DNA from: an uncultured virus (IMG/VR IMGVR_UViG_3300015607_003969)
Lineage: Duplodnaviria > Heunggongvirae > Uroviricota > Caudoviricetes
Length of the DNA: 63,659 nucleotides
IMG/VR virus record: IMGVR_UViG_3300015607_003969
Location: 62,001 to 125,659 of that record
Strand: one strand, 5' to 3'
Shown here: positions 30,358-59,421 of the stretch, piece by piece
Position numbering within the stretch: position 1 is the first letter of the stretch
Layout: every line of letters starts with the position of its first letter
Program-made: the position numbers and the translations under genes
The notes under the pieces: model-generated
What the model was told of the DNA's origin: nothing
Seen by the model: only the letters and a program-made list of their open reading frames with translations
Database searches by the model: none

Positions 30358-30378
30358 GCGTCAAACCTACCAGATCTG

Positions 30379-30451
30379 CGAGGGTGGGGGGACTCGAACC
30401 CACAACGCACGGGGATTAAGGCCGTCGTTCTGCCAATTGAACTACACCCTC
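30379..30451 (-). tRNA. Atypical tRNA, anticodon TAA (reads UUA), class I body
   Basis: GAGGGTG/CACCCTC acceptor; GTTC-AATTGGCA-GAAC D arm; ACGGC-CTTAATC-CCCGT; 5-nt variable loop; GTGGG-TTCGAGT-CCCCC; G73; no encoded CCA. Confidence 0.85.
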
Positions 30452-41648: not shown

Positions 41649-41726
41649 GGTGTCTCCTGAAACGTAACAACCCGATCAGCCGTGGGGCTGACCGGGTTTG
41701 TCCTAGGGGCTGGGTCGAGGGCGAGG

Positions 41727-42470
41727 TAACTTGAACTTGTTGTACGCCTCCACGATGGCGGTCCGGTGTTTGCTGACCGTGGGCTCGTCCATGCCGAGCC
41801 TACGGGCGATGTCCCCCGTGCCCAGCACAGGGTTTGTCGGGTGGAAGAGGGTGTCGAACACCCGTTGGGTCTCTGGCTTGAGGTGCTCCCGAAGCAGAGG
41901 CAACACCTCGGAGTCCCGGGAGATGCGCCCGTGAACAGCGTCACTCTCGAAGGACCCTGAGGGGATGTCGGCCACGAGACGCCTGAGCACCCCCTGGACG
42001 CCCTTGGGGGTAAGTCCCGCCCGAGTAGCGATCTCCGAGTCGGTAGGCTTGCGGCCAAGCTCGTCCTGAAGGGATGCCTGGGCTCGCTGGACCTTGCCGA
42101 TGTTAGCCGCCACGTCCTCCGGGATCCGCGCCACGTTTTGCGAGCGGATCACATCACGCAGCGTACTCTGTAGCCGGTTCTGGACGTGAGTGTTCAGCCC
42201 GGCCTTGGTCGGGTCGTAGCTGTGCAGCGCGTTCACGAAATGAATCATCAGGCTGGCGTCTATCGCCTGGGGCATGAGCATCCTGGCGCCCCCCGAGTAG
42301 TCCCCACGCTTACGCTCCAGCAGGGGACGAAACTCGTTGATCAGGGGCTGAAGCTTCTCGGGGTCCTTGCCCGACGACAGCCACTCTGCGTGCAAACGTT
42401 TGTGGTAATCCCCCCTATCCTCAGCGAGCTTGGCGACCACAGCGTCAATGTTGGCATCTTTGGAACCCAT
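41727..42470 (-). CDS. Phage RNA polymerase sigma factor (sigma70 family, FliA/SigF-like)
   Basis: NALHSYDPTK (region 2), ARIPE...LQDELGRKPTDSEIA (region 3), DIARRLGMDEPTVS HTH; ends at TTA 41727-41729 (code-11 end 41703). Confidence 0.83.
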
Positions 42471-54236: not shown

Positions 54237-54406
54237 GCACCCTACTACCCCCTCCCCCGGCGGAGCCAACCCAAAAGCTGTGCGGTGAGGAGACCGAGGA
54301 CGGTCCCCCCTGCCTGGAACCGGTCGAACCAGGGGAGGACAGATGCCCTAAGCACAGGGCAAAAACGGCCTAAAAACGGGCATAATAGATATGAAAGGAG
54401 GCTCTG

Positions 54407-54712
54407 ATGCTAGGAGCCCTTGGAGCCGCCCTCACCCTTTGGGTGGGGGGGAAGGCCTCCAAGCGACTCCTGGTCGTCGAGACCGGGATGGCGCTTGAGA
54501 GGCGTCACCCTGAAGCCTGGGGCACCCTACTCGGGGGTGAACTCAGGCTTCACCCGTCGCAGCTAGCAGCTGCGGCGGCGGTCTACGCCCATCACGAGAA
54601 CAAGGTGATGGGCGTAGAGTCCGACGCGTCAGGGGAGGTCCCTGGCGCGCCATTCATTTCGGAAAACGTGGCGGCCTACCTGCGAGGGGTAGGCCGCCTG
54701 ATGGAGGCCTGA
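54407..54712 (+). CDS. Hypothetical protein
   Basis: AAGGAGG RBS. Confidence 0.62.
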   Translation: MLGALGAALTLWVGGKASKRLLVVETGMALERRHPEAWGTLLGGELRLHPSQLAAAAAVYAHHENKVMGVESDASGEVPGAPFISENVAAYLRGVGRLMEA

Positions 54713-55132
54713 GTGGAATGGCTAGAAGCTATCCTCCAGGCCGCCCTGGAGGAGCAGATGAGCGACGCGGGAGCCAAAGAAGAAAAGAAGGAAGAGAAGA
54801 AGGAAGAGAAGAAAGAAGAGAAGAAAGAGACGCCGCCCACGCCCCCCAGGGCGTGGGCTTCCCTCGACGTGGGCGAGAGGGCCCACGTCGTCGGGATCCT
54901 CGCCCGACAGGATCTGTCGGACGAGCAGAAGCTTGGGGCCTGCGTGGGGATCGAGATCCCCGCGCAGGTCTGGCAAAAGGCGGGCTGGGGCGAGAAGATC
55001 GCCCGGGCCGGAGCTACGGCAGTGACGGTGGCGGCGGGAATCGCCGCCGTCACCGTCAGTGTCGTCGTGGTGGTCGAGGCGGGGCGCTACATCGCCCGCC
55101 TCGTGAAGGGTGCCCCCGCGGGGGCGCCCTAA
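54713..55132 (+). CDS. Hypothetical membrane protein with KEEK repeats
   Basis: GGAGG RBS; (KEEK)4; C-terminal TM. Confidence 0.62.
   Translation: MEWLEAILQAALEEQMSDAGAKEEKKEEKKEEKKEEKKETPPTPPRAWASLDVGERAHVVGILARQDLSDEQKLGACVGIEIPAQVWQKAGWGEKIARAGATAVTVAAGIAAVTVSVVVVVEAGRYIARLVKGAPAGAP
54776..54829 (+). repeat. Imperfect 12-bp coding tandem repeat
   Basis: About 4.5 copies of aa(a/g)gaaga(a/g)aag. Confidence 0.8.
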
Positions 55133-55141
55133 GCCTAAACA

Positions 55142-55186
55142 GATCGGACCAACCTCGCGGAGTCTCCGCGCGAGGTTGGTCCGATC
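55142..55186. terminator. Perfect 18-bp inverted repeat between convergent genes
   Basis: gatcggaccaacctcgcg / cgcgaggttggtccgatc, 9-nt loop; no U-tract. Confidence 0.6.
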
Positions 55187-55236
55187 GGGAACACGTGCAG
55201 CCCACCCTCCTCCTTCCGGGGCGAGCCATGTGTTCT

Positions 55237-56352
55237 TTAGCCCCCATAGGCCAGAAGCATCTTCTCCGAGCAAGAGAAGATCCGGTGGCCGTCTCCGAAG
55301 ATCTGGATGATGTCGTGCCTCTTCATGATGATGAACTCCTTCGGGGGAGGGGTGGTTGCATCGAACAGGAACCGAGGCAGGACGGTCCCCCCAAAGGAGA
55401 TGCTGTGAGCATCCGTGATCGAGTGGGGGCACTCTGCACGCTCTGCCTTGAACATCGCAAGGGTGGCAGTATGGAGGGAGGTTCCCGGGATGAAGGGGTT
55501 GTCGATCTTCTTACCCTCCGTGCCGCGGATACGGTGCGTGCTGGGCTTGCTGTCTACGGATATCTCAAACCTGCGCATAGCCTCCTCCCAGGCCCCCCGA
55601 TGGATGTTGTACAGGGCCACGTAGGCCGGGATGTCACCGTAGACCTTCAGGTCCGCCGGGGTAAAGGAGGGGTACACCCGAAGATGACCCGGGATCTCGT
55701 ACGTGTCGGGGTTCACGATAAAGGCAGCTAGCGCAGGGTTGCTCGGGTCATCGGACTCATTCTTGAGCACGCAACACAGGCGCGAAGCCTTGGACCACAG
55801 GGTGTGGTCCACCATGGCGATCAAGGTGTGGAGCTCGTCCTTCACGGTCCAGAAGAAGCTACCGTTCGACGCCTCCCCCACCTTCTTGATGGCCCCTGCC
55901 CGCTCAGCAAGGGCGATGATGAGATCCCTGGCCAGATCGAAGGTGTGGAGCTTTTCCCGGGGCCCGAGCGTGCCCGAGGGGCTGAACAGGAAGTCCCTGT
56001 CGCGCCACCCCTCCCGGAGGCTATCCCGCAGCGTAAAGCTCTCCGGTACGTCGGGGTCGACGTACCTTGGAGGGGACTCGTTCAGGGTCACGGCCTCCTT
56101 AGGCTGGAACTCGGTTACATCTTCCCCCGCAGGCTCGATCATGGGGGCCGGGGCCAGCACCTCCTCTTGGGGAGGGGCCGTGATTTCCGCGGTGATCACC
56201 GGCACCTCCACACCATCCGGTAGGAGCCGAGTTTCGGCAGCAGGAGAGGGGTCGGTCTCCTCGACAGGGTCAGCGGCCTCTGCGACAGAGGGCTCTTCGG
56301 GCGTCACGTCTTTCGCGGCCATCTCTGCCTGCCGCCTCTTCTTGGAACTCAT
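55237..56352 (-). CDS. Hypothetical protein with acidic disordered N-terminus
   Basis: ATG 56352 (MSSKKRR); globular C-terminal two-thirds. Confidence 0.68.
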   Translation of the reverse strand: MSSKKRRQAEMAAKDVTPEEPSVAEAADPVEETDPSPAAETRLLPDGVEVPVITAEITAPPQEEVLAPAPMIEPAGEDVTEFQPKEAVTLNESPPRYVDPDVPESFTLRDSLREGWRDRDFLFSPSGTLGPREKLHTFDLARDLIIALAERAGAIKKVGEASNGSFFWTVKDELHTLIAMVDHTLWSKASRLCCVLKNESDDPSNPALAAFIVNPDTYEIPGHLRVYPSFTPADLKVYGDIPAYVALYNIHRGAWEEAMRRFEISVDSKPSTHRIRGTEGKKIDNPFIPGTSLHTATLAMFKAERAECPHSITDAHSISFGGTVLPRFLFDATTPPPKEFIIMKRHDIIQIFGDGHRIFSCSEKMLLAYGG

Positions 56353-56436
56353 GCCCCCAGTATCGGCCCTGAGCCCAACGTTAGCCACCCTCAAAACGAG
56401 CTAGGCCGAACCCTCTTACGAGAATCCGGCCTACTC

Positions 56437-56511
56437 TGGGCGCGGCGGGAGGATTTGAACCTCCGTCCTCTAGCTTATGAGGCTAGCGAGCTACCACTGC
56501 TCTACCCCGCG
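56437..56511 (-). tRNA. tRNA with CAT anticodon (Met/fMet-like, atypical)
   Basis: CGCGGGG-TA-GAGC-AGTGGTA-GCTC-G-CTAGC-CTCATAA-GCTAG-AGGAC-GGAGG-TTCAAAT-CCTCC-CGCCGCG-C-CCA. Confidence 0.92.
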
Positions 56512-56669
56512 GTAGTCAGTTCGCACGAGTTGTAAACCCTGGGTTTTTCCGTTTAACGTGGAGTTGGTTGCGTGTAGGGGTCTACGGGAGCACGAAGTGA
56601 CAGGGGGATGTGTAACACAGGCCTGGGGGGTGTCAAGCAAGGGGTGGCAAAATACTGGAATAATAGAAG

Positions 56670-56940
56670 TGTGGGGAACCTACTACCTCTGCTGTGGGAC
56701 GGCCAAACGTCCGCCAGAGGTAGGCAACTGCCTGCACGCGAAGGTAAAGCGTGCACGAGCAGAAGGTTTCAGGCCGTATCGCGCTGAAAGCGGTACGGAG
56801 GCTTCACCCGGCGAGGGGTGAGGAGACCAGCCTATAAGGTGCAGCGGACATGTGTCTGTTGAACACCTGAGGGCGAGTATGAAGACGGGGTGGCTGCTGC
56901 TGAAGTGTTCGCACTTTAAAGAGCAGCCACCCTCTTTTCT
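56670..56940 (+). ncRNA. Candidate highly structured non-coding RNA (about 270 nt)
   Basis: Six consecutive stem-loops with G-U pairs, a promoter-like motif upstream and a terminator hairpin plus U-tract at the end; no credible ORF. Confidence 0.6.
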
Positions 56941-56999
56941 AGCCCCGCAAAAAATAAGCATTTTTAGCCATAAAGGTCCTGTAGGAGGAGACCTACAGC

Positions 57000-57488
57000 A
57001 TGAACGATCGGACCATTCGTTTGAGGTGGCACGCCGGGGATGAAACCACGCTCGTCACTGACGAGCGTGTACGTGAGACCGTCACCCGGTGGAACCGTGT
57101 CCTCTTCTCCAGCACCATCCGCTGGGTGGAGAAGACGACCACGGCTGACTTGGGGGCTATCCTGTGGCAGATCGACGAGATCGACAGGGTGCCCCCGGCG
57201 GACATCCTCACCTTGATTGATCCTTACGCTAAGCCTTCTAGCGCTGCGGAGGATAAGACCGACGAGGACCGGATCTGGGCTGTGCTCCGGATCCTTAACG
57301 AGCTAGACGAGTCGACCGTCGAGCTGCTCGGGTCTGTTCTCGGGCCCATCCGCGGCCTCTTTGTGGACGTTGAGGACGCCCTCAACCCTGACCCCGACTT
57401 CCACAAGGAGATGGACCTCGCGATGGACACCGCCAGGGAGGCTTTGGGGCACATTGAGTGCCTGGAGCCCTTCCCTCTCGTGCCCTGA
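57000..57488 (+). CDS. Hypothetical protein
   Basis: AGGAGGAG RBS; 162 aa. Confidence 0.68.
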   Translation: MNDRTIRLRWHAGDETTLVTDERVRETVTRWNRVLFSSTIRWVEKTTTADLGAILWQIDEIDRVPPADILTLIDPYAKPSSAAEDKTDEDRIWAVLRILNELDESTVELLGSVLGPIRGLFVDVEDALNPDPDFHKEMDLAMDTAREALGHIECLEPFPLVP

Positions 57489-57561
57489 ACGGGCGTACGC
57501 CGGGAGGAGGGGTTCGTTTAGCACCCAAAGGCGTAATAACGAAAAGGTAAGGAGGTACAGC

Positions 57562-58008
57562 ATGAGCATTACTTTCAGGTGGGTGCTCGACATGGACGAC
57601 AACGTCGCTTCAAAGATCATCCTCTGGCTCGATCATGTGATCGTAGGCAAGGAGATGCCTTCTCTCACGATCCAGGACCGGGACACGGACCGGTTCCACC
57701 AGCTCGTCGCCGAGATTACGCAGAACAACCTCCGCTGGGAGCTGAACTACGGGTTTAACTCGGGTACCGACGGAGGTCTCTACTTGACCGCTGTCGACGC
57801 GAGCGAAGGCACGGAGCGCGTCGGTATGGCGTGTCTCGCCCTGATAACCATCATGGCGGAGCTCAAGCAGCCGGTCATCGCGGGGTACGCCTCCTTCGGG
57901 CCGGCGTGGGGGGACTGCGCCGGCAGTGTCTTCTGCGTCTATCGCGGGGTCATCTCCGAGGACGACCCCAAGACGAGGGCCGAAGAGCTATACGCCCGAC
58001 TCAGCTAG
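57562..58008 (+). CDS. Hypothetical protein
   Basis: AAGGAGGT RBS; 148 aa. Confidence 0.68.
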   Translation: MSITFRWVLDMDDNVASKIILWLDHVIVGKEMPSLTIQDRDTDRFHQLVAEITQNNLRWELNYGFNSGTDGGLYLTAVDASEGTERVGMACLALITIMAELKQPVIAGYASFGPAWGDCAGSVFCVYRGVISEDDPKTRAEELYARLS

Positions 58009-58070
58009 ACGAGGGGCCTGGCTTGGCTTAGAGACAAACTCTTCCTTGAGAAACCCACAGCATAAGGTAC

Positions 58071-58709
58071 ATGATGAAAGCTATCGTTACGTTCTGGCTC
58101 TACACGCTGCTCACCCTATGGTACCCCCCTGAGCGAAGGAGCGAGAGTCTCCTCCTCGAAGCCCGGGAGTCCAAGGAGCAGGCGCAGGCCAGGTATCTGT
58201 CCATCGCGGAGGACGCCGTGGAGGTGGCGTTCATGCCCGAGGAAGACCCCGTGTTCAAGCTGAAGGATGAAGAGAAGGGCAGGGCGTGGACCGCGCTCCT
58301 GATGCTGAGTGTGGCGTACTTTGAAAGCGGGTTCCGACGGGATATCGATCGGGGGATAGGGCGGCTGTCCCGAGGTGATGGGGGGCAGTCCTGGTGCCTC
58401 ATGCAGATCCACCTCGGCGAAGGCAAGGTGCCAGACGCAGACCCCACGGTAGGCAGCTGGCGCGGGCGAGACCTGGTGGCAGACCGGAAGAAGTGCTTCC
58501 GCGCCGGCCTGCGTATGCTCAGGAGGAGCTTCACGGCTTGCTCTGGCCAGGCCTTTGCGTACCGGCTGAGCAGCTACGCGTCAGGCTCCTGCGACAAGGG
58601 GCACGAGGTGAGCAACCAGCGGCTGCTCTTCTTCAACCGGCAACTCAAGCGGCAGCTGGCCCTGCCTGAGGCGCAGGGTTCAGGGCTCGGAGTCCGGAGC
58701 GCCCCCTGA
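58071..58709 (+). CDS. Lysozyme-like/lytic transglycosylase with N-terminal hydrophobic anchor
   Basis: VAYFESGF (catalytic Glu candidate), SWCLMQI, LSSYASG. Confidence 0.72.
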   Translation: MMKAIVTFWLYTLLTLWYPPERRSESLLLEARESKEQAQARYLSIAEDAVEVAFMPEEDPVFKLKDEEKGRAWTALLMLSVAYFESGFRRDIDRGIGRLSRGDGGQSWCLMQIHLGEGKVPDADPTVGSWRGRDLVADRKKCFRAGLRMLRRSFTACSGQAFAYRLSSYASGSCDKGHEVSNQRLLFFNRQLKRQLALPEAQGSGLGVRSAP

Positions 58710-58988
58710 GCTCTTCCCTGTACAGAGCTCGTAGACATCGCGGGAGAAGCCCTTGAAGAAGATGCCGCACCTCCTGGCGATCCGGTAGGCGGCACGGCTC
58801 CTGGTCGTGGTGAGCTTGGTGTAGTCGATCATGTCGCTAGACACTCCAGCCACGAAGGATGTGGCCAGGAGCAGCAGGCCTCCAGCGCACACCCAGATCG
58901 CCCAGGGGTGCGTTTTTAGCCACGGAATGGCTGCCGACAGCAGCAGCTGAGCGATCTCTTGCTGTTCTTGGGTGACAGAGGGTTCCAT
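58680..58988 (-). CDS. Small membrane protein (holin candidate)
   Basis: TM helix WAIWVCAGGLLLLATSFVAGV and basic C-terminus; next to the lysin. Confidence 0.5.
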   Translation of the reverse strand: MEPSVTQEQQEIAQLLLSAAIPWLKTHPWAIWVCAGGLLLLATSFVAGVSSDMIDYTKLTTTRSRAAYRIARRCGIFFKGFSRDVYELCTGKSSGGAPDSEP

Positions 58989-58992
58989 GACC

Positions 58993-59421
58993 TAAGGATA
59001 TCATCAACCGGATCGAAGCCTTGATAAGACCTGCGACCCACTGAAGAAGATCCTGTCCCCCGAGAAGAGCCACGACAGCCCCAAAGATCTTGGCCGAGCC
59101 CAGGGCGACCTCCCTGCCCGTGACCTTACGGCTGAGCTCCGTGAGCTTGGCGTTCTGCTCTTTATCAGCCTTGGCCTGCTGGCTAAAGGCGAGGACGATG
59201 CGAGCGACAAGCTCATCTTCGCTGACCTCGATCTGCTGTATTTCTTGATGCACGGCTTCGAACTCCTTGATCATGGTCGCTCGCAACGCTTCCAGCTCCA
59301 GGTTAGTCTTGGCCGCGGCCTCCACCAAGAGAGCCATCTCTGAGACGATGACGGCCTCCTTGTCCTCGGGTTTGGCGTGGTCCACCAGCGACAGGAACCT
59401 CTGCTTGGCTTTCTCGGGCAT
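58993..59421 (-). CDS. Coiled-coil protein with C-terminal hydrophobic helix
   Basis: ATG 59421; ends at TTA 58993-58995, 4 nt before the next ATG (code-11 end 58837). Confidence 0.6.

Follow-up and report, generated by a model that had tools for sequence, protein, structure and literature searches.

A candidate stand-alone structured RNA with its own predicted promoter and terminator in the genome of an uncultured phage

A stretch of about 270 nt in the genome of an uncultured phage is likely to be a stand-alone non-coding RNA gene, with its own predicted promoter and terminator and with no credible open reading frame. The DNA under study (the window, 63,659 nt) is the second half of a linear virus record of 125,659 bp (G000), and positions 55001-59000 of the window were matched at 100% identity by a second, 162-kb record (G074). 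The RNA lies in a gap of ∼490 nt, with a tRNA gene (CAU anticodon, minus strand) on one side and the gene for a 162-aa protein, beginning at 57000, on the other. The stand-alone reading draws on a promoter common to the phage family, a terminator tail typical of this genome, a probable promoter for the next gene, the lack of any credible reading frame and the lack of a match in Rfam. A preliminary description of the locus had proposed a stand-alone RNA outside the known families; the same features favour that proposal, although the support consists of predictions.

A protein of 622 aa encoded near the RNA, for which a search at E ≤ 0.001 returned 1,765 representatives, was used to assemble a set of 80 viral loci (79 relatives and the identical copy), in which the complete records are about 175-210 kb. 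As judged from these sequences the phage is a member of a large uncultured family. A search of 50,697 annotated phage records for the 622-aa protein was negative, and the proteins adjoining the RNA led to no close relatives with DNA that could be used. The tRNA is a single gene on the opposite strand, ∼160 nt from the RNA. Initiator tRNAs have an unpaired first position and three consecutive G-C pairs in the anticodon stem; here the first position is paired and the anticodon stem has no such run, and the tRNA is therefore not of the initiator type. Its acceptor stem contains a G-G mismatch, and its discriminator base is C. A TTGACA hexamer that touches the -35 box of the RNA is a possible host-type promoter element for this tRNA; no -10 box for the hexamer passed the promoter scan. 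Elsewhere in the window, a tRNA-Leu(UAA) at 30378-30451 (minus strand) is short and is without a long variable arm.

Table 1. Coordinates of the features discussed in the text (window positions unless a locus is named; paired values are pair probabilities)
Feature	Position	Strand	Basis or remark
Divergent tRNA, CAU anticodon	56437..56511	-	tRNA model match
TTGACA hexamer, touching the -35 box of the RNA	56631..56636	-	Sequence
-35-like box GCAA, phage-family promoter	56637..56640	+	Conserved offset in relatives
-10-like box GGAATAAT	56657..56666	+	Matrix rank in G000
Predicted non-coding RNA, about 270 nt	56670..56941	+	Fold and promoter; both ends predicted
P1, 9-bp stem and inner 5-bp hairpin	56683..56723	+	56683-91/56715-23, mean 0.97; inner 56697-701/56708-12, 0.82
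P2, 4+7-bp stem, exposed 9-nt purine loop 56740-56748	56728..56762	+	56733-39/56749-55, 1.0; extension 56728-31/56759-62, 0.98
Strand able to pair with 56675-81 or with 56823-28	56764..56770	+	Constrained folds
P3, 9-bp hairpin, exposed 7-nt loop	56774..56798	+	56774-82/56790-98, 0.99
P4, 8-bp hairpin	56802..56823	+	56802-09/56816-23, 0.97
P5, 4-bp closing helix and 5+8-bp stem, AA bulge	56830..56874	+	Closing helix, 0.76; 56837-41/56864-68, 0.98; 56842-49/56854-61, 1.0
P6, 12+7-bp terminal hairpin, then U-rich TAGC tail	56887..56945	+	56887-98/56922-33, 0.98; inner 56901-07/56912-18, 0.93; probable intrinsic terminator
Second family promoter, before the 162-aa gene at 57000	56947..56976	+	Matrix score 12.4, rank 14 in G000; GCAA offset right
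Phage sigma factor, FliA/WhiG-like	41703..42470	-	Pfam Sigma70_r3, E 3e-9
C-rich small RNA family, about 160 nt	L057:5890-6064, L117, L119, L066, L265, L273, L286, L259, L268, L277	-	Upstream of large, probable tape-measure gene
Further promoter-driven, apparently non-coding units	L305:9074-9230 (-), L050:1-116 (-), L262, L235, L249, L099		Relatives; same region, different sequences

The sequence GGAATAAT, which occurs exactly once in the window, had been described as a motif just upstream of the RNA. It is present there but belongs to the promoter rather than to the RNA: comparison with the relatives identifies it as the -10 box in a two-part promoter common to the phage family. The 10-nt pattern of this box has 186 matches in the 80 loci, 146 of which are syntenic in position and orientation (one being the identical copy). 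In the aligned matches a GCAA box stood out upstream and a TG downstream, neither of which had been part of the search pattern. The GCAA box (three of its four letters, at equal offset) accompanies 78 of 127 syntenic sites as against 7 of 35 sites elsewhere. A promoter matrix trained on the relatives only placed the site at 56657 at rank 3 of the 251,238 positions in G000, and seven of its top 14 sites in that record are within 35 nt of the start of an ORF. In one relative (L109) a matching -10 box stands upstream of a tRNA. With GGAATAAT as the -10 box the RNA is expected to start near 56670, a 5' end placed from the conserved TG that follows the box.

In E. coli, FliA sites have a 23-nt offset between their boxes (PMC4183435). 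The phage promoter is like sigma-28 (FliA/WhiG) promoters in having two boxes, a 23-nt offset and an ATAA core, whereas the letters of its boxes differ from those of the E. coli sites. The phage encodes a FliA/WhiG-like sigma factor of its own (Table 1), with homologues in 50 of the 79 relative loci; its best NCBIfam match is FliA_WhiG (E 2.6e-8), far below the cut-off of that model. This sigma factor is the likely reader of the RNA's promoter, with a host sigma factor as the alternative. Weak relatives of the protein were found in four isolated 180-kb phages. A literature search returned nothing on this RNA or its promoter.

On the plus strand the RNA is predicted to form six helical arms (P1-P6), with about 70% of its bases paired. 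The fold has an energy of -139 kcal/mol (z -7.94) and none of 200 shuffles was as good, so that the comparison with shuffled controls suggested in the preliminary description came out in its favour; the minus strand gave -107.7 kcal/mol (z -4.33). With the last hairpin removed, z was -5.75 on the plus strand (0 of 150 shuffles as good) and -2.49 on the minus strand (3 of 150). Four of five sub-regions on the plus strand had z values of -4.0 to -6.6, and P1 alone had a z of -2.0. The stems that had been picked out by eye are all in the sequence at the positions given for them, mostly with high pair probability, and the reported preference of G-U pairs for the plus strand was borne out (10 of 95 pairs, as against 2 of 84 on the minus strand). 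A closing helix ggtttc/gagacc (56765-70/56823-28) is likewise present in the sequence but is little populated: within the ensemble, 56764-70 has 56675-81 as its partner at a probability of 0.84 and 56823-28 at 0.09. Folds constrained to the two partners had energies of -140.2 and -139.6 kcal/mol, a gap of 0.6. The accessibility table contains only two freely accessible 7-nt stretches, both of them purine-rich loops, and the loop of P2 has an unpaired probability of 0.97-0.98. A UUCG loop does occur in the last hairpin, but its closing pair is G-C and not the extra-stable C-G.

The last hairpin runs into a short U-rich tail that ends in TAGC. This hairpin-plus-tail form recurs elsewhere in G000, in several cases at gene ends, and also in the relatives; on this pattern P6 and its tail are a probable intrinsic terminator. 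The U-tract reported earlier is present, but it is short, and P6 was not flagged in a generic terminator scan. The second family promoter suggests that the 162-aa gene at 57000 probably has a promoter of its own and, as a consequence, probably does without this RNA as a leader. The ORFs over the RNA stretch have GC3 values of 0.50 and 0.57, as against 0.74-0.83 in the flanking genes; ORFs that cross the RNA are without the codon bias of the genome, and none is credible.

The next start codon lies 60 nt on, on the same strand, which would suit a cis-acting leader or attenuator of the gene cluster at 57000, in which a ligand, or a ribosome on a 54-codon ORF at 56879, would govern formation of the terminator. 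A GAGGG sequence that precedes the ATG of this ORF by 5 nt and lies partly inside the closing helix of P5, and the two-state strand at 56764-70 could both be accommodated in such a scheme. It is nevertheless a quite improbable one: the gene at 57000 has a promoter match of its own that follows the terminator, the 54-codon ORF has a GC3 of 0.50, loss of the 3' arm of the terminator costs 25 kcal/mol, a truncated transcript forms no anti-terminator pairing with the upstream arms, and no riboswitch model scores meaningfully.

After correction for GC content, 2 of 502 genome windows of the same length fold better than the RNA, both within a coding hairpin array at ∼54.5-55.3 kb. Because this coding stretch, 1.5 kb away and behind a similar promoter, reaches a z of -13, strong folding here is not specific to RNA genes. 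The array (54390-55190, plus strand) comprises about 800 nt with ∼20 back-to-back hairpins, among them an 18-bp perfect hairpin at 55142-55186, and sits behind the second-strongest family promoter (54379). It overlies two ORFs (101 aa and 139 aa) with normal codon bias, each with a hydrophobic stretch. More folded than the ∼270-nt RNA, the array resembles a translation-locked mRNA, by analogy. Three exact 11-12-nt words are common to 54284-54931 and to positions 56755-56828 of the RNA, in the same sense and among 31 such matches genome-wide; they give a weak hint of local duplication.

That the neighbouring coding cassette is itself an array of ∼20 hairpins, that folded stretches are common at this region in the relatives and that no conserved homologue was found in the searches would all fit a functionless by-product or relic, either a cassette that kept its promoter and terminator while its gene decayed or part of a generally hairpin-rich stretch (serving, for example, transcript stability). 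This explanation appears fairly unlikely in view of the promoter, which is intact and high-ranking, the absence of any remaining codon bias, the strong strand bias with G-U pairs mainly on the plus strand, and the arms themselves, which are bulged and branched beyond simple hairpins.

The only full copy of the RNA is the 100% identical one in G074. BLAST of annotated phages gave two short matches (E 5) and BLAST of plasmids one match (E 3); BLAST of 74 records (73 relatives and G074, six near-duplicate loci of the 79 having been left out) gave a full match only in G074, and nhmmer found no homologue of the RNA in the relative loci. Pattern scans of viral contigs produced 42, 30 and 11 stretches, which on checking held nothing beyond the G074 copy and chance matches. 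The scan of prokaryote genomes gave at least 120 stretches, of which 120 were ranked by folding and 80 were scored with a single-sequence covariance model (R1), with no homologue among them. R1 had no match in a set of 50 and matched only G074 in a set of 29; with a second such model (R3) the matches among 50 were limited to G074 and a single 25-nt hairpin, and on 72 loci all matches were at E ≥ 0.09. In R1 an inner 4-bp helix, 4 of its 46 pairs, was out of register, at some cost in sensitivity; G074 was nevertheless recovered with both models. Single-sequence models are weak and distant homologues could escape them. So restricted a distribution would suit an element that is recent or dispensable. 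The best weak match of R3 (E 0.09), L305:9074-9200, offers no more than a lead: it is a promoter-driven, ∼150-nt non-coding unit in the same region, with a similar terminator but with a different fold.

The families of Rfam 15 (tmRNA, 6S, SRP, RNase P, T-box, ribozymes and HEARO included) gave no covariance-model match for the RNA, and at E ≤ 10 the search yielded six trivial matches, whose scores of 13-21 bits fall far short of the cut-offs. A gathering-score search of the window, the check proposed in the preliminary description, returned two tRNAs and nothing else. A cobalamin riboswitch (RF00174) was considered and discarded, the only match being one of 19 nt at G000:116470 with 6.7 bits against a cut-off of 31.5 (E 2); among the cobalamin controls, 7 of 14 scored over cut-off. 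A viral catalogue (PMC10690425) lists candidates of 29-151 nt and requires at least three unique, non-identical regions; no match for the RNA was present in the part of its supplements searched.

The RNA adjoins a tRNA and contains a few short words that resemble words of known families, so a far-diverged member or fragment of one of these (GOLLD, ROOL, cobalamin riboswitch, T-box or small ribozyme), or a new ribozyme, was also considered. With six trivial Rfam matches at E ≤ 10, a single short cobalamin match elsewhere and no match to the GOLLD model (RF02032) in all of G000 at E ≤ 10, this is very unlikely. The analogy with GOLLD drawn in the preliminary description did not hold up, given that negative search, the length of ∼270 nt, which is too short, and a position divergent from a single tRNA instead of in a tRNA island. 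The solved ROOL and GOLLD examples are 659-833 nt, with ROOL at 659 nt and GOLLD often over 800 nt (10.1101/2024.12.08.627333), as against about 270 nt from promoter to terminator in this phage. Both are large, ornate RNAs and, like this one, are phage-encoded, stand-alone, heavily paired and near tRNA (10.1101/2024.12.08.627333). GOLLD and ROOL sit in a tRNA island and have pseudoknots and oligomers, whereas this RNA is divergent from one tRNA and is known here as a predicted fold.

Among the relatives, 19 of 170 distinct strict-promoter units are without an ORF in their first 120 nt, by what is a crude test. Seven C-rich units align with one another and show compensatory change at 9 of 19 pairs, those of a pairing between the hairpin loop and the 3' flank included. 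A model of this C-rich RNA (R2), which describes a C-rich 5' part, a conserved hairpin loop and a CCCCAC-flanked terminal stem, has 10 members, three of them outside the training set. These RNAs stand under the family promoter, and both their terminal stem and the loop-to-3' pairing covary; the family is better supported than the ∼270-nt RNA, and a search of Rfam with two of its members gave no match. From its C-rich words, the RNA of this family may pair with ribosome-binding sites. The C-rich RNA is like the ∼270-nt RNA in promoter type, region, orientation and terminal long hairpin, and unlike it in being about 160 nt long, pyrimidine-rich and equipped with the loop-to-3' pairing.

This conserved family, with the same promoter and position in 10 members, raises the question of whether the ∼270-nt RNA could be a base-pairing small RNA, in which refolding would free a pyrimidine-rich 5' arm or 3' tail for ribosome-binding sites. 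The two near-equal folds, and the three exact words in common with 54284-54931, near a hairpin-rich mRNA, point the same way. The idea is unlikely to be correct, however. R2 found no match on the RNA with filters off, and none elsewhere in G000 or in G074; the C-rich segments of the RNA are held in stems at a probability of 0.97-0.98; and the words are same-sense, amount to 3 of 31 genome-wide, and another 1-kb bin equals this one in its number of 10-nt matches. No antisense match to the available phage DNA was longer than 13 nt.

The closest relative that reaches the region has the promoter and then apparently non-coding sequence up to the contig end. Further units of this kind occur in other relatives (Table 1), that of L050 also ending at a contig end, and folded stretches are common in the corresponding region. 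This part of the genome, next to the large gene that is probably the tape-measure gene, therefore behaves as a variable non-coding slot.

For the stand-alone RNA gene favoured here, host RNA polymerase with the phage FliA/WhiG-like sigma factor would start at ∼56670, and transcription would end near 56940, at P6 and its U-rich tail, to give an RNA of about 270 nt. The RNA may then act in trans and by its shape, as a decoy or scaffold for a host or phage protein, with protein contact made via the exposed purine-rich loops and junctions and not by mRNA pairing. It would in this way fill the variable non-coding slot of the accessory region described above. Action by its fold, as a decoy for a protein, is the favoured mode; with all of these steps holding jointly it is put forward tentatively, as somewhat less than an even chance; the protein-binding part was reached by elimination of other modes and is mostly a guess. 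CsrB and RsmZ are small RNAs that sequester a protein and carry repeated GGA in hairpin loops. They provide the closest functional analogy for a decoy, in that this RNA is also stand-alone and multi-hairpin with purine-rich loops; unlike them, it has GGA in none of its six predicted hairpin loops, and it has no Rfam match.

A more far-reaching proposal, which we regard as speculative and improbable as it stands, is that the phage family expresses swappable, unrelated non-coding RNAs via the sigma-28-like promoter, and that the ∼270-nt RNA is the first of a new class of two-state, RNA-only decoys directed against a host defence or translation factor. If such RNAs were interchangeable tools of counter-defence or translation control, this phage group would have new RNA mechanisms to offer. 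The RNA itself adds a fold outside Rfam to the open question of phage non-coding RNAs, as a singleton in an uncultured phage and one among numerous orphans of this kind. The family-wide sigma-28-type promoter offers a way to list the non-coding RNA genes of the whole phage group; this listing has already exposed the covarying C-rich small RNA family and a tRNA-like cassette, and the context outweighs the singleton RNA.

That cassette, at G000:20640-21160 (L225:341-862) and outside the window, is non-coding and lies under the strongest family promoter. Its parts are a pair of hairpins, a tRNA/tmRNA-like piece of 128 nt that contains a long insert (E 2.4e-4 with the tmRNA model, whose cut-off of 47 bits is above the 18 scored) and a branched ∼300-nt RNA (z -3.8) that ends in the family terminator tail. 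BLAST in 49 relatives found no full-length homologue of the cassette. Paralogy between this second structured RNA (L225:553-862) and the ∼270-nt RNA was rejected, since 219 of 1000 shuffles (345 of 500 in a second comparison) and 171 of 2124 natural controls scored as well. Among the relatives, L183, L187, L191, L193 and L194 have, beside ordinary tRNAs, tRNA-like genes whose anticodon arms are irregular or extended, and L178 and L184 have full tmRNAs. Finally, L089, L109, L088, L179 and L180 carry tRNAs with a CUA (amber) anticodon, possibly for stop-codon read-through or recoding.
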